A DNA stretch of 64,000 bases, from positions 64,679 to 128,678 of the forward strand of contig MFEQ01000004.1 in the NCBI GenBank assembly GCA_001777665.1, in the 5' to 3' direction. This document shows, in pieces, positions 4,301 through 63,284 of the stretch. Position numbers and translations under genes: made by a program. Each line of letters starts with the position of its first letter. Positions within the stretch are counted from its first letter, which is position 1. The notes beneath the pieces are model-generated. The model was not told the origin of the DNA and did not search any database. It saw only the letters and a list, made by a program, of their open reading frames with translations. The DNA is from Candidatus Doudnabacteria bacterium RIFCSPHIGHO2_02_FULL_42_25 (GTDB lineage: Bacteria > Patescibacteriota > Doudnabacteria > UBA920 > O2-02-FULL-48-8).

Positions 4301-4424
4301 CCCCCTCTTAGAATAAGAGGGGGTTAGGGGGGAGTTAGATCTCAAGCGTTAAACAGCAGCTTAATCCTTAAAGGATATAACCCCTCCTAGCCTCCCCTTA
4401 ATATAAGGGGAGGAACAACAGCAT
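4301..4424. mobile_element. MITE-like palindromic element (family 1: CCCCTCTTAGAATAAGAGGGG ... CTCCCCTTAATATAAGGGGAG); miniature of the DUF559 element at 33796-34251
   Basis: Both hairpin ends match the inverted ends flanking the DUF559 ORF; same 120 bp unit present in reverse orientation at 55135-55252. Confidence 0.7.
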
Positions 4425-14015: not shown

Positions 14016-14570
14016 CTACAGCAGGATATGGCAGGCGTCGACTTTGACCGACGACTCCGTGATCTCCTTCACCAGGAACAGGCCGTACTTGCCGGATTCC
14101 GTTGTCACGGCAAGGATCGTTCCCGGCGTCAGCGTCACGATCTGGTCGTTTCTCGAGATCGCGACACGAGCAACGCGTGCCAGCGCTGACCCATCCTTGA
14201 GCTCGCGGAGCTGTTGGAAGGTTTGCTCGGAAATACCCGCCGACGAAATCCATGTCTGGTTGAGCGCCCCGGCGACGACGCGGTCGTCCAGCAACTGGAG
14301 AGAAAGCAGCGCCTTGGGCGAGCAGACGCGCACGCCGTTGCCGAACACGAACGTCAGGTCAATCTCGTTGGCGTTCTGCTCCGCATCGTTGATCGGCCGG
14401 CTCTTGTTAGCCTTGCATTTCATCAGGTAGCACAAGGGCCTTTCACCGGTGAACTCGGCGCTGTAACGGTAAAACACCCCTCGCTCCGACGGAATCACCG
14501 GCTCTGACACCGGATTGGATAGATCTTGCGTTGACTGGTCTCTTGGCTCGACTTGCACGATACACCCTCC
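14016..14570 (-). CDS. hypothetical protein encoded in a GC-rich island
   Basis: GTG start near 14568 with AAGGAGGGTG SD; local GC about 55-58% against AT-rich surroundings; no family recognised. Confidence 0.4.
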   Translation of the reverse strand, partial: GGCIVQVEPRDQSTQDLSNPVSEPVIPSERGVFYRYSAEFTGERPLCYLMKCKANKSRPINDAEQNANEIDLTFVFGNGVRVCSPKALLSLQLLDDRVVAGALNQTWISSAGISEQTFQQLRELKDGSALARVARVAISRNDQIVTLTPGTILAVTTESGKYGLFLVKEITESSVKVDACHILL

Positions 14571-14691
14571 TTTGGGCTTCGCTGATTTACTGCGGTTAAA
14601 CTGAAAACTAGGGACACACTGAAGTGCCCCTAGTTTACCAAGTATCGGTAGGGCTTGCAACTAGCATATTTTAAACAATTTCGAATCCTAT

Positions 14692-14808
14692 TTAGTCCGC
14701 TGTGTGTTCGATTTTATCCCCAGCTTTTTTAAGGCCGTCTTTTACTTTTTCTTTCGTTTTCTCGTAGCCTTTCTCAATTTTTTCATCAAGATCACTAAAT
14801 GAACCCAT
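14692..14808 (-). CDS. small CsbD-like stress protein (38 aa)
   Basis: MGSFSDLDEKIEKGYEKTKEKVKDGLKKAGDKIEHTAD resembles CsbD/YjbJ-type small proteins; GAAAGGA SD; not in ORF track (<60 aa). Confidence 0.4.
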   Translation of the reverse strand: MGSFSDLDEKIEKGYEKTKEKVKDGLKKAGDKIEHTAD

Positions 14809-14818
14809 GGAATCCTTT

Positions 14819-14838
14819 CCTGCCTGCCGGCAGGCAGG
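14819..14838. repeat. perfect 20-bp palindrome CCTGCCTGCCGGCAGGCAGG (copy 1)
   Basis: Identical palindrome at 29607-29626 and 32015-32034; variant at 35660-35679. Confidence 0.9.
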
Positions 14839-14905
14839 CGTTAATGATGTAAAAGGATTCTATCATTTCAGGCAATTTAGAGAATTGGTATTTAGTCCAA
14901 TGTGA

Positions 14906-16339
14906 TTACCCAACCTCCAAAGAATCCAGAATTGCTTGATTGGTATCAGGAGTATACTTTTTAAGCGGCACTAGATTCTGTCCCCATGCTGTCATGATCG
15001 GATCTATAAATGCCCACATTGCCTTAACTTCAGCGGTTGATACAAACAAAGTTTGATCTCCAACTATACAATCCAGCAATAGTTTTTCGTATTCTTCGAC
15101 ATACTGCACTCGTTGAGCTGAATCACGCAAAATAAAATCAATCGTTCGTGACTCTTTTACCAAAGTAAGCCCGGGTTTCTTTGACCAAAACTCGATTGCA
15201 ATGCCTTCAGTAGGTTCCAGCGAAAAAGTAATCTTATTTTTATAATGTATTCCGCCTGGCGGGCAAAAGCATTCCTTGGGATGTGCGTAAGTGACTATTA
15301 TTTCCTTTCTCTGTTCGTGCATCCGTTTACCGCTTTCGAAAATAACTGGCACGTCTTTCCACCGAGGATCGGTAAGTGTGCCTTTAATCTTAAAATACGT
15401 CTCTGTATTAGAATTCGGGGGAACGAAGGCGATTGTCTGGTATCCCTCATACTGTGCTCGATAAGTTTGTGATTTTATTTCCTCCTGTGTCAAAAGCTTT
15501 AAATTGTTTAAAAGTTGGGCTCTTCTTAAATGGAGAGCGCTAGCTTGAAAGTCTAAAGGGTAATTCATTGTGATAAACGCCAGCATCTGCAACAGATGGT
15601 TTTGTCCCACATCTCTAAGCGCTCCCACACCATCATAAAAACTTCCTCTATGCTCCACTCCCAATGTCTCCCACAGTCTGATCTCGATTTTTTCTATAAA
15701 ATCCTTGTTCCAGGTCTTTTCAAAAATATCATTTGAAAACCGAAAGGTTAAAATATTTTGCACCATTTCTTTAGCCAGATAATGGTCAATCCTATAAATC
15801 TTGTTTTCTGCAAATAGATTTCCTAAAAGACTATCGAGTTTTTCAGCGGTCTCGGAATTTTTGCCAAATGGCTTCTCCACCAAAATTCTGGTTTCTACAT
15901 CTGTATTTTCGGGTCGGTCGCTTAGCCCCGAAAATTTCAACTGTTCGAAGATACTCTGATAAACATCCGGAGGCACGGCCAGATAGAACAGCCTGTTGGT
16001 TTTTGCTTGCCACGGCTCTTGGATTTTATCCAATAATTCTTTCAACGCTTCATACGATTCTTTTGATTCAAACAAACCGTGCTGGTACGAAAACAGTTTT
16101 GAAAATTCTTCAACCCTTTTTAGATCCGCATTTTGGATTTTGGCTCGGATCATTTCTGAGACAAAAGATTGAATGCTTTTGTCATCGAATGGTTTGCGCC
16201 CGAACCCCACGATCCGGAATTTTTCCGGAAGAGCATTTTTTAAATACAAGTTAAAAAGCGCTGGTGCTATTTTCTTTGCAGTTAAATCTCCAGTGATACC
16301 CAGGATTATTAAAATAGTTGGTGTGTGCTTGTCTGTCAT
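14906..16339 (-). CDS. zwf: glucose-6-phosphate 1-dehydrogenase
   Basis: Rossmann GITGDLTAKK, RIDHYLAKE (G6PD signature variant), EKPFG; start set to MTDKHTP (the track's 17 extra N-terminal codons run through the GC-rich hairpin leader). Confidence 0.85.
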   Translation of the reverse strand: MTDKHTPTILIILGITGDLTAKKIAPALFNLYLKNALPEKFRIVGFGRKPFDDKSIQSFVSEMIRAKIQNADLKRVEEFSKLFSYQHGLFESKESYEALKELLDKIQEPWQAKTNRLFYLAVPPDVYQSIFEQLKFSGLSDRPENTDVETRILVEKPFGKNSETAEKLDSLLGNLFAENKIYRIDHYLAKEMVQNILTFRFSNDIFEKTWNKDFIEKIEIRLWETLGVEHRGSFYDGVGALRDVGQNHLLQMLAFITMNYPLDFQASALHLRRAQLLNNLKLLTQEEIKSQTYRAQYEGYQTIAFVPPNSNTETYFKIKGTLTDPRWKDVPVIFESGKRMHEQRKEIIVTYAHPKECFCPPGGIHYKNKITFSLEPTEGIAIEFWSKKPGLTLVKESRTIDFILRDSAQRVQYVEEYEKLLLDCIVGDQTLFVSTAEVKAMWAFIDPIMTAWGQNLVPLKKYTPDTNQAILDSLEVG

Positions 16340-22975: not shown

Positions 22976-22995
22976 TCTTGTGATCGCGAGTTTCC

Positions 22996-23070
22996 TACGA
23001 AATACGAATTGGTACGAAACTACGAACTGGGCTTAATTCTTTCGTATTTTCGTAGATTTTCGTAGTTCGG
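22996..23070. promoter_or_regulatory. TACGAA/TTCGTA iteron palindrome (copy 1) in mraZ 5' region
   Basis: 4 direct TACGAA repeats then 3-4 inverted TTCGTA repeats; same architecture at 31445-31524, 35119-35190, 61170-61264, 63134-63245. Confidence 0.7.
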
Positions 23071-23104
23071 AGAGAAAACTCCATTAATAGCTACAGGAAC
23101 CGAG

Positions 23105-29606: not shown

Positions 29607-29626
29607 CCTGCCTGCCGGCAGGCAGG
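29607..29626. repeat. perfect 20-bp palindrome CCTGCCTGCCGGCAGGCAGG (copy 2), intercistronic
   Basis: Abuts stop codon of upstream gene, 13 nt before next ATG. Confidence 0.9.
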
Positions 29627-30169
29627 TTAGTACGCCTCGACCTTGGCGAAATTATTCAAAAAATTAATATTTGGAGTTTCAAATTTATAAGGCATCTCCA
29701 ACTCCAATTCATAAGTTGGTTCGGTATCTATAGAACCAATCTCTATTATTGCTCCCAAAACCTTTCCTTGTGTATCGTATGAAATCTGTTGTTGCCCCTC
29801 ATAACCCGATCTCACCTGGTCAGTTAAATGATTAATCGCGAGTGAGTAAGCTTCTATTGTTGGTTCGAAATCCTCGAATGGAATTGTTGCAACTTCAGTG
29901 AAGGCCAGATAGAATTGTTCATAAAAATCATTTTGCGCATCCCAAACGAAGGTAACCGTATCGACAACTCCCTGGGCTTGCTGATTCATATCAAGAATCG
30001 TAACTGCCTGCGCTACATCAGACTGCATTTGAGGAGTGAGGCCGGTGAAAAAAACAATTCCAACCACTACCACACCGACAAATCCCCAGGCAACTAATGA
30101 AGTCTCAAACCAATTTAAATTTTGATAATCTGTTTTCATAATATGCTTTTTGTTTTTGAAGATAATCAA
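29627..30169 (-). CDS. membrane-anchored protein, paralog family member 3
   Basis: TM, VVDTVTFVWDAQNDFYEQF motif. Confidence 0.45.
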   Translation of the reverse strand: MIIFKNKKHIMKTDYQNLNWFETSLVAWGFVGVVVVGIVFFTGLTPQMQSDVAQAVTILDMNQQAQGVVDTVTFVWDAQNDFYEQFYLAFTEVATIPFEDFEPTIEAYSLAINHLTDQVRSGYEGQQQISYDTQGKVLGAIIEIGSIDTEPTYELELEMPYKFETPNINFLNNFAKVEAY

Positions 30170-30326: not shown

Positions 30327-30469
30327 TTATTTAATTTTCTTTTTGTTTTAGACCCTTTTTGTTTCGATCAGGATCGGCTAGCCGATACTATATCTACTTG
30401 TATTATAGCAAAAAATCGCTCTCTTGTCAACAATTCAGGCTAGTAATAAGTAAGGAGTAATTAGTAAAT

Positions 30470-30500
30470 AGAAAACTGCGGGGTTGGCCGCAGTTTCTTA
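30470..30500. terminator. rplL terminator hairpin AAAACTGCGG-GGTTGG-CCGCAGTTT
   Basis: Stem-loop with flanking A/T runs; near-identical hairpin at 33151-33168. Confidence 0.65.
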
Positions 30501-30521
30501 TTACTTTTTACTTATTACTAA

Positions 30522-30896
30522 TTACTTGAGCGTGACTTTCGCGCCAGCTTCTTCGAGTTTTTTCTTTAATTCTTCAGCTTCGGCTTTTGCGATATTTTCT
30601 TTAATCGCTTTAGGAGCAGCATCAACTAAGTCTTTCGCTTCTTTCAAACCCTTGCCAGTAGCTTCGCGTACGACTTTGATGACGTTGATCTTGTTGGCCC
30701 CGGCATCGGTAAGCTCAACTGTGAATTCAGTCTTTTCTTCTACAGCAGCAGCTCCACCTGCAGCCGGGCCTGCGGCCATCATCATCGGAGCCGCAGCAGA
30801 AACACCAAACTTTTCTTCCAAAATTTTCACCAATTCAGAAAGCTCGAGGGCCGTTAACTTTTCAATCTCTGAAACGATATTATCAAAATTTGCCAT
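30522..30896 (-). CDS. rplL: 50S ribosomal protein L7/L12
   Basis: Classic L12 N-terminal dimerisation and C-terminal domain sequence. Confidence 0.9.
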
Positions 30897-31444: not shown

Positions 31445-31524
31445 CTACGAACTTACGAAATTTTTACGAAAGTACGAAGAGCTAATTTTTTTCGTATTTT
31501 CGTACTTGTTCGTACTTTCGTAGC
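31445..31524. promoter_or_regulatory. TACGAA/TTCGTA iteron palindrome (copy 2), immediate rplJ leader
   Basis: Ends 10 nt upstream of rplJ ATG. Confidence 0.7.
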
Positions 31525-31936: not shown

Positions 31937-32014
31937 CTTCGCACCCCTGTGGATAACAGCTTAACATAAAAACCCCAGCTTTCGCCAGAGTCCCTTTTTA
32001 CTTATTACTTTTTA

Positions 32015-32034
32015 CCTGCCTGCCGGCAGGCAGG
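32015..32034. repeat. perfect 20-bp palindrome CCTGCCTGCCGGCAGGCAGG (copy 3)
   Basis: 7 nt after mltG stop; flanked by TTACTTATTAC motifs. Confidence 0.9.
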
Positions 32035-32041
32035 CTTATTA

Positions 32042-33130
32042 CTATCTCAAGTATTTCGCCCTATTCTCCCCATGCTCTTCCAGAGTCTTGGCAAAATATG
32101 CTGTTCCATCAGGTGAATTCAAGAAAAATAAATAATCAGAGTTCGCGGGATAAATTGCTGCTTTGATCGAATCAATTCCTGGATTGCCTATCGGTCCTGG
32201 TGGTAATCCACGATTAGCATAAGTGTTGTAGGGAGATTTAATTTTCGTATCTTCGATGGTTACAGACCGATCGGATTTCCCTGTCACATAATTTATCGTT
32301 GCATCTGATTCTAACGCCATACCAATTTCTAGTCGATTATAAAACACTGATGCGACCAGTTCTCTTTCGTTCTGCATAATTTCCAAATCTTCATCAGTAA
32401 GATTTTCTTTATTCCTTCCGACTTCCTTCTCTATGATAGAAGCTAAAATCAATATTTGTCCGAAATCATAATTTGTTTTCTCCGCATCTTCCACCATTTG
32501 ATCTGTAACCTTACTTTCAAAATTATTTAACATTTTACTAATCAAATCTTCTAGATGATTTTCTTTACTCAAGGTGTAAGTGTCCGGAAATAAAAATCCT
32601 TCGTAGTTAAATTTGTCACCCAAAATTTTAAATTCAAAATCAAAGTTGCCAGCCAAGGCATTATTAAATTCGGTTTCAGAACTGATGATATTTCTGTTAA
32701 CCAAATATTTTCCAATTTGTTTATTACTCCAGCCTTCGATCATGGTCACGTTCCGATTCTCACTCACAACTTTTCCGTGCGTCAGGATGTCGACAATTTC
32801 TGGAATTGCCATGTTGCTGTTTAACACATATTCGCCTGCCTGAATTTTTCCTCCAGCATTGTGAAGCTTAGTATAAATCAAAAAAATATATTTATTGCCT
32901 ATAACTTTTTCTTCCCATAGCAGCTGCCCGGTTTGTTTGGTCGAAAATCCTTTTTCTACAGTGATGTTTATTTCATGACTTTCGTCAGTAGCAGCGGCAT
33001 TAACTTTAGTTAGATAGTAAGTAACCATCACTAACCCTACTACAACAATCAATGCCAACAGCAGTAAAAGGCTTTTGCGCAGCCCTCGCTTTGGATCAAT
33101 TATTTGATATTCGTTCGGATTCATTTGCAT
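32042..33130 (-). CDS. mltG: endolytic murein transglycosylase MltG (YceG family)
   Basis: N-terminal TM, YceG-like domain, GLPPGPIGNPG motif. Confidence 0.8.
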   Translation of the reverse strand: MQMNPNEYQIIDPKRGLRKSLLLLLALIVVVGLVMVTYYLTKVNAAATDESHEINITVEKGFSTKQTGQLLWEEKVIGNKYIFLIYTKLHNAGGKIQAGEYVLNSNMAIPEIVDILTHGKVVSENRNVTMIEGWSNKQIGKYLVNRNIISSETEFNNALAGNFDFEFKILGDKFNYEGFLFPDTYTLSKENHLEDLISKMLNNFESKVTDQMVEDAEKTNYDFGQILILASIIEKEVGRNKENLTDEDLEIMQNERELVASVFYNRLEIGMALESDATINYVTGKSDRSVTIEDTKIKSPYNTYANRGLPPGPIGNPGIDSIKAAIYPANSDYLFFLNSPDGTAYFAKTLEEHGENRAKYLR

Positions 33131-33677: not shown

Positions 33678-33795
33678 GTACCTAATATTCTTTTTTATTT
33701 TTGTTTCTTTAGTAAGACTCTCACCTTACATACATAGTATAGCAAATTTTCCGGATTTTGTAAATAGGTATGAGTAATTTCGCCCGCAGTTTTTC

Positions 33796-34251
33796 CCCTC
33801 CTAGAATAGGAGGGGCTAGGGGTGGTAGAACCTAAGGCAACTCACGAGAAATTTTTTCAATTACACCTTCAATACTTTCCCGAACCTCATCATTCGTAAA
33901 ACGAAGAAGTCGAATTTGATTAGATTCTAAAAAAACTTCTCTTCTCTTGTCATATTCGTTTCCTTTTGGATCTAGAAAATGTGAATCACCATCTACTTCA
34001 ATTCCTAACCTTAATTCATTACAATAAAAATCCAAAATATAATTACCAATTCCATATTGTCGTCTAAATTTATAACCTTTAAGGTTCTTACCTCTTAGAT
34101 AATACCAAAGAATCTGCTCTGCTTGAGGCATATTGTTCCTTAGTTGCTGTCTTCTGCTTTTATATTCTTTTTTGTTGTATAAATAATCCATACTTTATTC
34201 TACCTCACATTCTACCCCACCTAACCTCCCCTATTCTAGGGGAGGAACAAC
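33796..34251. mobile_element. small palindrome-ended element carrying a DUF559 nuclease gene (ends CCCCTCCTAGAATAGGAGGGG / CCTCCCCTATTCTAGGGGAGG)
   Basis: Inverted hairpin ends flank the ORF; MITE-like ORF-less derivatives at 4301-4424 and 55135-55252. Confidence 0.65.
33832..34191 (-). CDS. DUF559 (Vsr-like PD-(D/E)XK) endonuclease-domain protein
   Basis: LW..LR...GYKFRRQYGIGNYILDFYCNELRLGIEVDGDSH hallmark of DUF559. Confidence 0.8.
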   Translation of the reverse strand: MDYLYNKKEYKSRRQQLRNNMPQAEQILWYYLRGKNLKGYKFRRQYGIGNYILDFYCNELRLGIEVDGDSHFLDPKGNEYDKRREVFLESNQIRLLRFTNDEVRESIEGVIEKISRELP

Positions 34252-35118: not shown

Positions 35119-35190
35119 CTACGAACTACGAATTTTTACGAATATACGAACTGGGGTTAACCCTTTTCGTAAATTCGTGTTTGTTCGTAA
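35119..35190. promoter_or_regulatory. TACGAA/TTCGTA iteron palindrome (copy 3) with GGGTTAACCC core
   Basis: 58 nt upstream of 35061 start. Confidence 0.7.
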
Positions 35191-35346
35191 GTTGCCAGCA
35201 CAAAAAAAGCAAAGCCCGAAATTCAGGTTTTACTCGTTTTTTCGCACTACGGATTGTTGTTGGGTTTCCATCAAAAAATCGTATCTATCCACATTATACA
35301 ATATAAAGCCCCCGCTTGTCAACGGGGGCAATATATTTTTGGTTTT

Positions 35347-35659: not shown

Positions 35660-35679
35660 CCTGCCTACCGTCAGGCAGG
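35660..35679. repeat. 20-bp palindrome variant CCTGCCTACCGTCAGGCAGG (copy 4)
   Basis: In hup 5' region, next to a GC-rich island. Confidence 0.8.
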
Positions 35680-42466: not shown

Positions 42467-42558
42467 GTTAATTTTTAATTCTGAATTTTGTATTTCGAAT
42501 AAAATTATTAAATTCTAATTTCGAAATTGAATCAAAATTCTTAATTCTTAATTCAAAA

Positions 42559-43290
42559 TTACTTTGCTATTGCAGCGTCTTCGGTTTGAGTCATCACAGC
42601 CTGCTGCATTTTGCTTTTACCTTCATTAATCGCTTCTGCCATGATGTTGGCCATGAAGCTGATAACTTTTATCGCATCGTCATTTGATGGGATTATATAA
42701 TCAACTTTGGTTGGATCCGAATTGGTATCGACGAGTCCGATAACTTTGACTTTGGACAATCGAGCTTCAGTCACTGGAATGTGGTCGTGCTTGGTATCGA
42801 GAACGAAAATAGCTTCCGGTAATTTCTTCATTTCTTTGATTCCAGAGAAGAAGGTTTTCATTTTCTCAATTTCGCGGGCTGTCATCAACTGTTCTTTTTT
42901 CGTATATTTCTTGATCTCACCAGTCTCAATCATTTTTTCCAAACGTTCCATTTTCTTGATTGTTTTCTGGATTGTACGGAAGTTCGTAAATGTACCACCT
43001 AACCAGCGTTCTACGACGTAAGGCATACCGCATGATTCCGCAGCTTTACGCACTTCATCTTTTGCCTGTCGTTTCGTTCCCACAAACAAAACAGTACCGC
43101 CCTTGGATGCAACTTCTGTTGCGAAGTTTACTGCATCCGACAGTTTGTTTTTGGTTTTTTCCAAATCCAAAATGTGGATGTTGTTGCGCTGGGTGTAAAT
43201 GTATTGCGCCATTTTTGGATTCCACAAAGAAGTTTTGTGGCCAAAATGAACCCCAGCTTTAAGCATCTCCATTAGTTCAATGGACTTCAT
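42559..43290 (-). CDS. rpsB: 30S ribosomal protein S2
   Basis: MLKAGVHFGHKTSLWNPKM signature. Confidence 0.9.
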   Translation of the reverse strand: MKSIELMEMLKAGVHFGHKTSLWNPKMAQYIYTQRNNIHILDLEKTKNKLSDAVNFATEVASKGGTVLFVGTKRQAKDEVRKAAESCGMPYVVERWLGGTFTNFRTIQKTIKKMERLEKMIETGEIKKYTKKEQLMTAREIEKMKTFFSGIKEMKKLPEAIFVLDTKHDHIPVTEARLSKVKVIGLVDTNSDPTKVDYIIPSNDDAIKVISFMANIMAEAINEGKSKMQQAVMTQTEDAAIAK

Positions 43291-49383: not shown

Positions 49384-49452
49384 CCCATCCCAGACGCCAC
49401 GAAGGGCGATCCGGGATCCACTTTATTGGACCCCGGATCAAGTCCGGGGTGG
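49384..49452. repeat. GC-rich hairpin repeat family 3 (ATCCCAGA..TCCGGGAT / ACCCCGGATCAAGTCCGGGGT)
   Basis: Two hairpins; the second is identical at 56330-56353. Confidence 0.7.
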
Positions 49453-55134: not shown

Positions 55135-55252
55135 CAGCAGTTGTTCCTCCCCTTAATATAAGGGGAGCTAGGAGGGGTTATCCTTAAGCGTTAAGCTGCT
55201 GTTTAACTCTTGGAATCAACTCCCCCTAACCCCCTCTTATTCTAAGAGGGGG
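55135..55252. mobile_element. MITE-like palindromic element (family 1), reverse-orientation copy of 4301-4424
   Basis: Near-identical block order in reverse complement. Confidence 0.7.
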
Positions 55253-55268
55253 AATTTACAGCAAACTT

Positions 55269-56201
55269 ATGTCTAACAAACTAATAGTAATTTTAGGCCC
55301 TACCACCTCGGGGAAATCATCACTCGCTATCAATCTCGCCCAAAAATTCAATGGCGAGATTATTTCTGCTGACTCCAGGCAAGTCTACAAAGGCATGGAT
55401 ATCGGCACTGGTAAAGTTACTAAAGCAGAACAAAAACTAATCAAACATTATCTTCTCGACGTCTCCTCCCCAAAAAAGCAATTCACTGTTTCGGATTTTA
55501 AGCGTCTTCTAATTTCAGCGATCGCTCAAATTAGAGGAAAAGACAAATTGCCTTTCTTAGTTGGTGGCTCGCCTTTTTATATTTATGCGGCCATAGATAA
55601 TCTACAAATTCCAGAAGTCACACCCAATCAAAAACTACGTAATCAACTACGTAGAAAAACTACTACCCAACTTTTTGCCATGCTTAAAAAACTTGACCCA
55701 GTTCGAGCAAAAAATATTGATAAAAATAATCCTCGGAGATTGATAAGAGCTATTGAAATAGTAAAAGCGACGGGAAAGCCGGTACCACCCCCACCTAACC
55801 TCCCCCTGGCAGGGGGAGGTGCCTTGATCATTGGGATCAAGAAGTCTCGTAAACAGCTCTACAAGCTTATCGATCAACGACTTGAGCAAAGACTCAATCA
55901 AGGAATGGTTAATGAAGTCAAAAAACTTCTGAAACAAAAAATCAGCCACAAACGGCTGCAAGAAATGGGATTAGAGTATCGCTTTATTTCTCTTTATCTG
56001 CAAGATCATCTCACCTATGAGCAAATGGTTGAACAATTGAAAAGCGCTATTCACAAATTCAGCAAACGCCAAATGACTTGGTTCCAAACCGACAAACGTA
56101 TCAAATGGATCTCTTCAGAAAAACAAGCAGAACGACTAATTAAGGACTATATAAAACCATCTCGACCCCGGACTACGATCCGGGGGAGAGATCCCTCCTG
56201 A
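55269..56201 (+). CDS. miaA: tRNA dimethylallyltransferase
   Basis: P-loop GPTTSGKSSLAINLA, DSRQVYKGMDIGT; carries two in-frame palindromic insertions (55789-55819 and 56166-56201). Confidence 0.85.
   Translation: MSNKLIVILGPTTSGKSSLAINLAQKFNGEIISADSRQVYKGMDIGTGKVTKAEQKLIKHYLLDVSSPKKQFTVSDFKRLLISAIAQIRGKDKLPFLVGGSPFYIYAAIDNLQIPEVTPNQKLRNQLRRKTTTQLFAMLKKLDPVRAKNIDKNNPRRLIRAIEIVKATGKPVPPPPNLPLAGGGALIIGIKKSRKQLYKLIDQRLEQRLNQGMVNEVKKLLKQKISHKRLQEMGLEYRFISLYLQDHLTYEQMVEQLKSAIHKFSKRQMTWFQTDKRIKWISSEKQAERLIKDYIKPSRPRTTIRGRDPS
55789..55819. repeat. family-1 hairpin CCCCACCTAACCTCCCCC-TGGCA-GGGGGAGG inserted in-frame in miaA
   Basis: Shares 17-mer CCCCACCTAACCTCCCC with element end 34215-34231; translated as PPPNLPLAGGGA. 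Confidence 0.7.
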
Positions 56202-56366
56202 GAGCGATTTCTCACTAATCGTTCGAAATGGGTAATCCCATCCCGGACGCTACAAGCGAAGCGCGGGCGATCCGGGATCCACTACACTAATTAATATCAA
56301 ATGATTCTTATTTGAAATGGACCCCGGATCGGCTTGATCGCCGGAGAGACGATCAAGTCCGGGGTG
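56166..56366. repeat. composite GC-rich hairpin repeat (family 2/3) overlapping the miaA 3' end
   Basis: CCCCGGA-CTACGA-TCCGGGG encodes the last miaA codons; GAGAGATCCCTC block; ATCCCGGA..TCCGGGAT; ACCCCGGATC..GATCAAGTCCGGGGT. Confidence 0.7.
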
Positions 56367-61169: not shown

Positions 61170-61264
61170 CTACGAAAGTACGAATTCTCGAATTACGAAC
61201 TGTTCGCCCGCCTGCCATGACGGCATGTCGGGCAGGTAGTTTCGCAATTTCGTATTTCGTAGAA
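61170..61264. promoter_or_regulatory. TACGAA/TTCGTA iteron palindrome (copy 4) with core CGCCCGCCTGCC..GGGCAGG, abutting htpX ATG
   Basis: Core is the reverse complement of the core in copy 5 (63151-63192). Confidence 0.7.
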
Positions 61265-61269
61265 ATACC

Positions 61270-62603: not shown

Positions 62604-62678
62604 AGAGGGATCTCTCCCCCGGATCGGAGTCCGGGGTCGAGATGGTTACCTATTTGGTCCGATCGTACAAATAGGTAA
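62604..62678. repeat. family-2/3 repeat (GAGGGATCTCTCCCCCGGATCGGAGTCCGGGG) plus hairpin TTACCTATTTG/CAAATAGGTAA
   Basis: Right flank of ppnP-like gene, abuts recX stop. Confidence 0.6.
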
Positions 62679-63133: not shown

Positions 63134-63245
63134 CTACGAAAGTACGAAAGGATTACCTGCCCGACATGCCAGTCATGGCAGGCGGGCGAAAATACGAAAG
63201 GTTTTCACACATGTTCGTATTTCGAACAAATTCGTAGTTCGTAGA
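63134..63245. promoter_or_regulatory. TACGAA/TTCGTA iteron palindrome (copy 5) in the recX/clpC divergent region
   Basis: Inverted copy of 61170-61264 including the GC-rich core. Confidence 0.7.
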
Positions 63246-63284
63246 AGAATTTTAACCATTTGCTTTAGGCATCAAAATTCAAAT

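Follow-up and report, generated by a model that had tools for sequence, protein, structure and literature searches.

A 20-bp perfect palindrome that is probably a miniature insertion element shared among bacterial phyla and phages

Introduction

Known bacterial palindromic repeats, including repetitive extragenic palindromes (REPs), Rickettsia palindromic elements (RPEs), and miniature inverted-repeat transposable elements (MITEs), are lineage specific. Here, we describe one that is not. The DNA analyzed is a stretch of 64,000 nucleotides (referred to as the window; contig MFEQ01000004.1, positions 64,679 to 128,678, GenBank assembly GCA_001777665.1) from Candidatus Doudnabacteria bacterium RIFCSPHIGHO2_02_FULL_42_25, a groundwater member of the Patescibacteria (the candidate phyla radiation, or CPR). 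In it, the exact 20-bp perfect palindrome CCTGCCTGCCGGCAGGCAGG, abbreviated P throughout, recurs in the spacers between genes. We consider it likely that P is a miniature, nonautonomous insertion element, that is, selfish DNA made up of the 20-bp perfect palindrome only, and it appears to belong with the REP/MITE-like elements as a new variant. The P sequence, its 12-nt core, and the peptide LPAGRQ were absent from the searchable literature, and keyword searches returned no description of the element.

The closest described systems are the REPs and REPINs (REP doublets forming hairpins). Like P, these are GC-rich hairpin repeats of 20 to 40 bp that are present in multiple copies, lie mostly between co-directional or convergent genes and sometimes within genes, are thought to be nonautonomous mobile DNA, and are able to act as RNA hairpins. 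A REP is marked by a conserved tetranucleotide, GTAG (or CGTC), at one of its ends, and it is this tag that confers polarity (PMC3733652). P, in contrast, has no GTAG/CGTC tag, no polarity, and no paired REPIN arrangement, and no gene for a REP-associated tyrosine transposase (RAYT) was found nearby. Moreover, whereas REPs form one family per species, P is identical in about ten phyla and in phages, with variable duplications and deletions at one junction.

RPEs and in-frame MITEs (e.g., those of Coxiella) resemble P in that they are palindromic selfish DNA residing in tolerant protein loops, RNA genes, and spacers. However, RPEs are 100 to 150 bp long and restricted to one genus, whereas P is 20 bp long and crosses phyla. 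Because 20 bp is not a multiple of three, P also needs a compensating indel when it lies within a gene. The MITEs of DDE-type insertion sequences (ISs), such as Correia/NEMIS, are nonautonomous, carry terminal inverted repeats, and occasionally duplicate their target, but for P there is no parent IS bearing CCTGCCTGCC/GGCAGGCAGG ends and no fixed duplication length, most copies having no duplication at all. DNA uptake sequences and the cyanobacterial HIP1 likewise place an identical short sequence at many loci with a frame preference inside genes, and the uptake sequences often pair into hairpins after genes; unlike P, which is a 20-bp insertion found across lineages, they arise by point mutation and biased uptake or repair and are lineage specific. 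A further parallel comes from fungal mitochondria, where GC clusters and double-hairpin elements, likewise short and GC-rich palindromes, invade genomes rich in AT and are found in spacers, in frame within genes, and nested in one another. In contrast to P, these clusters are organellar, measure 30 to 50 bp or more, exist as family variants, and in some classes duplicate a short fixed target.

Copies of P in the window

A search of the window that allowed up to three mismatches found exact P at 14819, 29607, and 32015, a copy with two substitutions at 35660, and no further match; neither half-site, CCTGCCTGCC or GGCAGGCAGG, occurs elsewhere in the window. The original prediction, made from the letters of the window, had reported P at four loci and judged the repetition to be beyond chance. 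Three of the four copies are indeed exact, and 100 dinucleotide shuffles of the window yielded no match to P.

All four copies lie in short spacers between co-directional genes on the minus strand, and their flanks differ from one another. Copy 1 (exact, 14819-14838) is situated 67 nt past the stop codon (14906) of the glucose-6-phosphate dehydrogenase (G6PD) gene, and the ATG (14808) of an open reading frame (ORF) for a CsbD-like protein follows it after 10 nt. Copy 2 (exact, 29607-29626), which sits inside a single minus-strand gene string, adjoins the TAA (29627-29629) of a 170-aa ORF and is followed after 13 nt by the ATG (29593) of a 135-aa ORF. Copy 3 (exact, 32015-32034) begins 7 nt past the YceG/MltG stop codon (32042-32044); it has a 9-bp direct repeat, CTTATTACT, on both sides, adjoins a run of CTTTTTA heptamers, and is followed 17 nt later by a distinct hairpin (approximately 31945-31985) that resembles a terminator and carries a U-run. 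Copy 4 (CCTGCCTACCGTCAGGCAGG, with the two substitutions, 35660-35679) precedes the ATG (35631) of hup by 28 nt. The spacings first noted for copies 1 to 3 are thus borne out, as is the placement of copy 4 about 30 nt before hup. The description of copy 4 as having one substitution per arm was mistaken: on the sense (minus) strand, which reads CCUGCCUGACGGUAGGCAGG, one of the changes falls within the loop and the second converts a G-C pair to G.U, so that the predicted RNA stem is still 8 bp. It had also been thought that the hairpin abuts a Shine-Dalgarno sequence in three cases, and only two such cases (copies 1 and 2) were found. The spacers of this genome are very short and are where an insertion is tolerated, which best accounts for the closeness of P to start and stop codons.

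The copies are not a product of one assembly. Exact-protein look-ups assign the window to a CPR population of the Rifle aquifer. A 165-kb contig from JGI is 100 % identical over the parts compared (window 22042-43130), the region is present in NCBI assembly GCA_001780145.1 and in several ENA assemblies (two ENA projects), and the same three sites hold P both in a strain that differs at 21 of 9252 positions (99.6 % identity) and in a contig of a separate project. Since P occupies the same positions in these independent JGI, NCBI, and ENA assemblies and in the 99.6 %-identical strain, an assembly artefact, which had been named in advance as something that would undo the case for P, is excluded.

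P is gained as an exact 20-bp insertion

The manner in which P is acquired can be read from sites that exist in both filled and empty form. In three loci (L036, L105, and L029), an intact tRNA gene has a partial 5' copy of itself alongside, and the difference between the two is exactly P, with an additional C-to-A change at the P junction in L029. These P-bearing paralogues are partial copies of tRNA-Lys, tRNA-Gly, and tRNA-Val genes, and none has a target duplication.

A second filled and empty pair is provided by gatB. The protein of L103 reads ETDD-LPAGRQ-VVY where a 95 %-identical orthologue (P0121, from L226) reads ETDD-GQ-TVY, and L226 has no P-like sequence across 9.5 kb. The empty site in L226 is GATGA^CGGTCAAACTGTCTATACT, beginning GATGA^CGGTCAAAC, and the filled site in L103 is GATGA[P]TGGTTTATACT, i.e., GATGA[P]TGGTT... 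The left junction is clean, 20 nt were added, and 8 nt were lost on the right, for a net gain of 12 nt that keeps the frame. L103 has a second P, located between two diverged copies of the last 57 to 62 nt of gatB. The upstream copy of this segment now terminates gatB, while the downstream copy resembles the end of the gene in L226; this arrangement is a long, imperfect target duplication that rescues gatB.

The third case is ftsK. Orthologues without P read AAC GGC GGC AAG (N-G-G-K), and removal of P from three filled genes restores AAY GGC GGA. In the three P-bearing genes, the frame is recovered by one extra nucleotide within 10 to 15 nt downstream, and in a fourth lineage, it is recovered by the loss of 2 nt inside P. 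Only with P kept in place does a conserved motif downstream, PLPYLLIIIDELADLM, stay in frame; P in ftsK is therefore translated and not spliced, which rules against the idea of a mini-intron removed at the RNA level. A mini-intron in functional tRNAs is also unlikely: deletion of P in silico gave no new tRNAs with ARAGORN, because most P-bearing tRNA pieces (among those inspected closely, L036, L105, L029, L084, and L015) are partial or disrupted; the one in L147 looks complete. Finally, P is found within itself: nested copies, with one P at or beside the center of another, are found in L018, L021, L041, and L027.

Several features of the tRNA loci deserve mention in their own right. A small GIY-YIG-type ORF lies between the duplicated 5' tRNA part and the intact tRNA in L105 (3600-4070) and L036 (2100-2480). 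It is intact in L105 and decayed in L036, and it looks like a homing-type insertion that carried a replacement tRNA segment; an association of P with small GIY-YIG genes beside tRNAs was seen in two to three loci only. In L015 (4015-4225), two tRNA halves (acceptor GTCAGGG...CCCTGAC-ACCA) are about 100 nt apart with a complete tRNA-Met gene in between, and the 5' half also has P in its D-arm. In L147 (2240-2330; also L124, 8570-8660), a phage contig encodes a tRNA-Met with P in the variable loop and both halves otherwise intact, in which P would be predicted to form a long extra arm, as in a class II tRNA.

Distribution across phyla and viruses

A scan of one genome per bacterial or archaeal species (596 Gb) found exact P in more than 119 stretches, where about 0.5 would be expected by chance (5.96e11 positions x 4^-20). 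With taxa taken as labeled in the records, and among the matches listed, P occurs in about ten phyla, including many classes of Patescibacteria. The same matches include Bacteroidota, with seven isolates (Winogradskyella, Flagellimonas, Longitalea, Flavivirga, Aquiflexum, Agriterribacter, and Aestuariivivens), as well as Ignavibacteria, Omnitrophota, Planctomycetota, Verrucomicrobia, Elusimicrobia, Thermodesulfovibrionales (Nitrospirota type), Thermodesulfobacteriota (Desulfobacterota type), Bdellovibrionales, and one Chloroflexi genome. Some "Gammaproteobacteria" labels of metagenome-assembled genomes (MAGs) look unreliable; the GatB of L103, for example, is closest to Shapirobacteria proteins. 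P is found in isolate genomes and in long-read chromosomes.

Viral sequences carry P as well. IMG/VR has 35 stretches with P, and among control patterns scanned in the same database, a swapped-arm palindrome and a composition-matched palindrome each gave 0 and a compensated double variant gave 1. One 29.5-kb IMG/VR contig with six copies is a real phage, as its genes for a terminase and an adaptor protein show. No full copy of P was found in PLSDB plasmids (7.3 Gb) or in cultured phages (2.3 Gb). Nor was P found in approximately 400 kb around relatives of YceG in other CPR lineages (34 loci), a set that serves as a P-free control only, the nearest relative being 63 % identical and its spacers unalignable.

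Between different P loci, the flanks are unrelated, and the repeated unit is the 20-mer alone. Approximately 30 of the approximately 150 loci with exact P carry additional mutated copies within a few kilobases, which indicates that P-bearing genomes typically hold many copies of different ages. Variants of P were seen as well: a 21-nt form, CCATGCCTACCGGCAGGCAGG, makes up a tandem array of at least 10 units in a viral contig (L156, 3914-4125), and lineage-specific subfamilies occur, such as CGTGCCTGCCGGCAGGCACG in L145.

Where copies of P persist

Placement relative to genes was scored at loci with a GC content of no more than 50 %, where crude ORF calls are usable. At these loci, 88 of 106 copies (approximately 83 %) are outside ORFs of at least 100 aa. 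Of the copies that have a neighboring gene on both sides, tandem spacers hold 43 and account for 63 % of spacer length, convergent spacers hold 12 (21.5 % of length), and divergent spacers hold 5 (15.6 %). The distances from P to neighboring genes are broadly spread.

Copies within bona fide genes are always read in the same frame, x-LPAGRQ-x, and always fall in variable loops. The genes concerned encode FtsK, GatB, a dTDP-glucose dehydratase (rfbB), a BNR-repeat protein, membrane proteins, and phage proteins, and every such internal P is accompanied by an adjacent compensating change of +1, -2, or -8 nt. P is at the tip of a preexisting perfect stem of at least 6 bp in 8.8 % of cases, versus 1.9 % of random positions, which lends modest support to targeting of hairpin tips, and so this location is not the rule; 33 of 169 copies are within 30 nt of a tandem array of 6- to 9-nt units. 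In our reading, stem tips, arrays, and short spacers are chiefly sites at which a 20-bp hairpin is harmless.

One location is hard to reconcile with P as plain junk DNA. Exact P is found at the same nucleotide of ftsK in three CPR lineages (L013, L219, and L222), and two further lineages have a decayed P at the same place. The three FtsK proteins share 67 to 71 % identity, and codon identity at conserved four-fold-degenerate residues is 0.35 to 0.47, i.e., synonymous sites are saturated. Given the conserved amino acids, the probability that the six codons of P would have stayed identical is 0.003 to 0.013 per pair. In a neighbor-joining tree, which is poorly resolved, the P-bearing ftsK genes are placed among P-less ones. 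An identical P at one ftsK site despite saturation points to either site-preferential reinsertion or active maintenance of perfect copies.

Junctions and a proposed mechanism

Several properties of the junctions bear on how P moves. Immediately before P, A is found in 41 % of cases and T in 9 %, and the flank logo has no conserved tetranucleotide. The most frequent arrangements are A[P]T (24 %) and G[P]G, which reads C[P]C on the opposite strand (23 %). The best-resolved empty sites have the form A^CGG (gatB, GATGA^CGGT; ftsK, AA^YGGCGGA), and this form matches the center of P itself (TGC^CGGCAGG), the site of nested copies. Among 162 copies, direct repeats that abut P are absent in 94, 1 nt long in 50, 2 nt long in 10, 7 nt long in 4 to 5, and 8 nt long in 1, with rare longer repeats of 14, approximately 28, approximately 57, and approximately 76 to 77 nt. 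The two flanks of a copy are similar to each other more often than those of control positions: 9.6 % of P copies, compared with 2.8 % of intergenic controls, have a similarity score of at least 12 (Mann-Whitney p = 0.004). Together, flank similarity, abutting repeats, and the +1, -2, and -8 nt changes suggest that one junction is precise and the other is imprecise, a pattern that would be compatible with a target-primed reaction or with insertion at a break that is staggered or processed.

P does not appear to be a remnant of something larger. Across the 1.17 Mb that surround P copies, each solitary CCTGCCTGCC or GGCAGGCAGG belongs to a decayed P, and since solo half-sites are always such decayed copies, there is no larger parent element. 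The idea that the halves of P are the ends of a larger element gained no support from scans for arms 1 to 30 nt apart either; the fillers were mostly unrelated and their numbers were roughly those expected by chance.

The comparisons above show that P enters DNA as an exact 20-bp unit without carrying flanking sequence, that it persists mainly between genes, at the tips of hairpins, in duplicates of genes that are dispensable, and in protein loops that vary, that it decays by point mutation, and that its sequence is identical in many phyla and phages. In the model that we favor, an enzyme whose gene lies at another place in the genome or on a mobile element would move P in trans. One junction would be clean, often after A and, in the best-resolved cases, before CGG; the other would be imprecise, the target being left unaltered, with a small indel, or with a duplication of 1 to approximately 75 bp. 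Selection would then retain harmless products only. The four copies in the window would be insertions of this kind, located in the tiny spacers that this CPR genome has, and their hairpin of -14 kcal/mol would be incidental to their presence. Among the roles first proposed for P was that of the core of a mobile palindrome, and it is this proposal that fits the clean 20-nt filled and empty sites, nesting, in-frame copies, unrelated flanks, and patchy spread across phyla.

A number of observations weigh against this model. Target preference is weak overall, and there is no strong motif in the flanks. The 150 ORFs that adjoin P fall into 173 Pfam families with no enrichment for nucleases or transposases; they are ordinary housekeeping genes. 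A jackhmmer search for Y1 transposases in 1.6 Mb found two IS200-like ORFs flanked by hairpins other than P, which is a weak negative. The window's four copies show no presence/absence polymorphism, every sampled strain carrying them (exact-protein look-ups with YceG and HU). The exact P at the same site of ftsK does not fit a purely neutral, randomly inserting element, and the model does not account for sequence identity across phyla, which is not seen in lineage-specific REP/MITE families.

We raise, tentatively and as a possibility that is on balance doubtful, the idea that P is the product of an undescribed DNA-"writing" or transposition activity, one that would install an invariant 20-bp hairpin at A^CGG-like sites, would reinsert at the same nucleotide or keep copies perfect, and would be shared horizontally, perhaps by phages, among Patescibacteria, the FCB (Fibrobacteres-Chlorobi-Bacteroidetes) and PVC (Planctomycetes-Verrucomicrobia-Chlamydiae) groups, and others. 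If so, P would be the smallest known mobile unit in bacteria and a source of new peptide loops in essential proteins.

If P is a miniature insertion element, a noncoding 20-bp sequence has spread unchanged between phyla and into phages. An element this invariant across phyla implies either horizontally mobile machinery with a strict sequence requirement or a mechanism that keeps copies identical. P also shows how selfish DNA can add peptide loops to the essential proteins FtsK and GatB. In practical terms, it offers a concrete, datable insertion marker in CPR genomes, which are otherwise hard to study, and in the annotation of MAGs, spurious problems of frame, tRNAs that are split, and odd hairpins between genes can be traced to it.

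Alternative explanations

Could P instead be a functional RNA hairpin, such as a barrier to 3' exonucleases, a processing site, or a modulator of translation, that has been recruited repeatedly and kept perfect by selection on its stem? As RNA, P is predicted to fold into a stable 8-bp stem with a CCGG loop (-13.9 kcal/mol), and copy 4, which keeps the stem by means of the G.U pair on the sense strand, is predicted to do so at -12.0 kcal/mol. The four window copies are in transcribed, co-directional spacers, and two touch a Shine-Dalgarno sequence. Divergent spacers hold 5 of 60 copies for 16 % of spacer length, a deficit that is not significant, and the exact conservation of P in ftsK across saturated lineages could reflect selection on the stem. 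On the other hand, no U-tract or T-run follows any of the four window copies on either strand, which rejects an identity as an intrinsic terminator; a terminator scan around copy 1 (14500-15000) found no terminator-like site; and Rfam 15, at gathering score, has no family at P, its matches in the window being five tRNAs only. Copies are translated within ORFs, lie in pseudo-tRNA pieces, are nested, and form tandem arrays, and the broad spread of their distances to neighboring genes is not what such a role would favor. The compensated double variant, which would preserve the stem, is approximately 35-fold rarer than P in IMG/VR (1 versus 35 stretches), and the clean gain of an identical 20-mer in unrelated phyla is left unexplained. 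We therefore regard a primary role as an RNA hairpin as unlikely. The earlier suggestion of an mRNA processing or stability hairpin survives at most as a side effect: the hairpin is stable and may incidentally affect mRNA stability or ribosome access.

In the minus-strand RNA at copy 1, P is predicted to tip a longer helix in which GAAUCCUUUU pairs with the Shine-Dalgarno region AAAGGAUUC (-30.6 kcal/mol, z = -3.8). The location of P at the apex of this helix, formed by GAAUCCUUU and the Shine-Dalgarno sequence, is consistent with insertion into the loop of a preexisting regulatory hairpin. The downstream gene is a 38-aa CsbD-like ORF (14692-14808, minus strand; MGSFSDLDEKIEKGYEKTKEKVKDGLKKAGDKIEHTAD) that is uncalled in the ENA annotation (L196). 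Its Shine-Dalgarno sequence can pair with the complementary stretch upstream and might form a translational switch.

No more probable is that P is a classical REP or REPIN moved by a RAYT, i.e., a Y1 HUH transposase of the IS200/IS605 type that acts on single-stranded hairpins. Genes for Y1 transposases are common among P-bearing phyla, and P matches REPs in its size, in its GC-rich hairpin, in its bias toward intergenic sites with occasional copies inside genes, and in often lacking a target duplication. Insertion without target duplication is a property of IS200/IS605 elements (PMC3733652). However, P is perfectly symmetric, with no GTAG/CGTC tag at either end; the called genes of the window include, by Pfam, no transposase family and no Y1_Tnp; and the two IS200-like ORFs in 1.6 Mb are not flanked by P. 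REP families are species specific, whereas P is identical across phyla, and the variable target duplications and small deletions at one junction differ from the IS200/IS605 pattern.

A role as an operator, or binding site, for a conserved dimeric DNA-binding protein was also among the first proposals. It draws on the perfect 20-bp dyad and on the two window copies just upstream of start codons, and we consider it very improbable. The neighbors of P are unrelated housekeeping genes with no common family, there is no constant distance to a start codon, and no promoter-like site was found in the surroundings of copy 1. Copies are found after stop codons, in coding sequence, in pseudo-tRNAs, in one another, in tandem arrays, and in phages, and P was gained as an insertion and did not evolve in place. 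For a palindromic operator of the CIRCE type in particular, there is no coherent gene set, and copies inside ftsK, gatB, rfbB, and pseudo-tRNAs led us to reject it.

A technical artefact, namely, an adapter or linker palindrome from library construction or assembly, would account for a perfect palindrome that is seen mostly in MAGs and is identical in unrelated organisms, but its likelihood is negligible given the same positions across independent samples, projects, and assemblers and in the closely related strain, the copies in isolates and long-read chromosomes, the decayed copies beside exact ones, the strong intergenic bias, the single reading frame with compensating indels inside genes, and the absence of P from 9.6 Gb of plasmid and phage records.

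Related and unrelated hairpins in the window

The window also has a related GC-rich imperfect palindrome of 33 nt, CCCGCCTGCCATGACGGCATGTCGGGCAGGTAG, which we call Q. One copy (61207-61239, plus strand; -17.1 kcal/mol) is at the center of an inverted array of TACGAA units, and a second, with a 1-nt indel (63154-63186, minus strand), is off center in another such array. The related CCTGCC...GGCAGG cores that had been noted in these TACGAA elements are thus real and represent one 33-nt element in both orientations. An exact-pattern scan of IMG/VR for Q found none.

There are five TACGAA elements (22995-23075, 31445-31523, 35119-35195, 61170-61265, and 63134-63250). Each consists of about four TACGAA units spaced 8 to 10 nt apart, a short core, and about four TTCGTA units, and each forms a long imperfect hairpin in a spacer. 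Comparable inverted or tandem arrays of 7- to 8-nt units, often ACGAA/TTCGT-like, are present in other phyla and in phage contigs, where they frequently host P (L100, L144, L188, and L123). Two further spacers of the window have inverted arrays of heptamers that share the architecture of the TACGAA elements and differ in their units: TAGTAAT x4 facing CTTATTA x4 and TTAATTT facing AATTCTT (30441-30527 and 42468-42560).

Two other hairpin families were also noted. One, CCCC(T/C)C..loop..G(A/G)GGGG, occurs at 4301-4323, 4391-4413, 33795-33815, 34225-34245, 55147-55167, 55230-55252, and 55798-55820, mostly as pairs 90 to 430 nt apart. One of these pairs brackets a small gene for a DUF559 (Vsr-like endonuclease) protein (33832-34191), which suggests a small mobile cassette. 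The other family has CCCCGGA...TCCGGGG stems and is found at 49430-49450, 56166-56185, and 62617-62636 (and also at 56268-56331).

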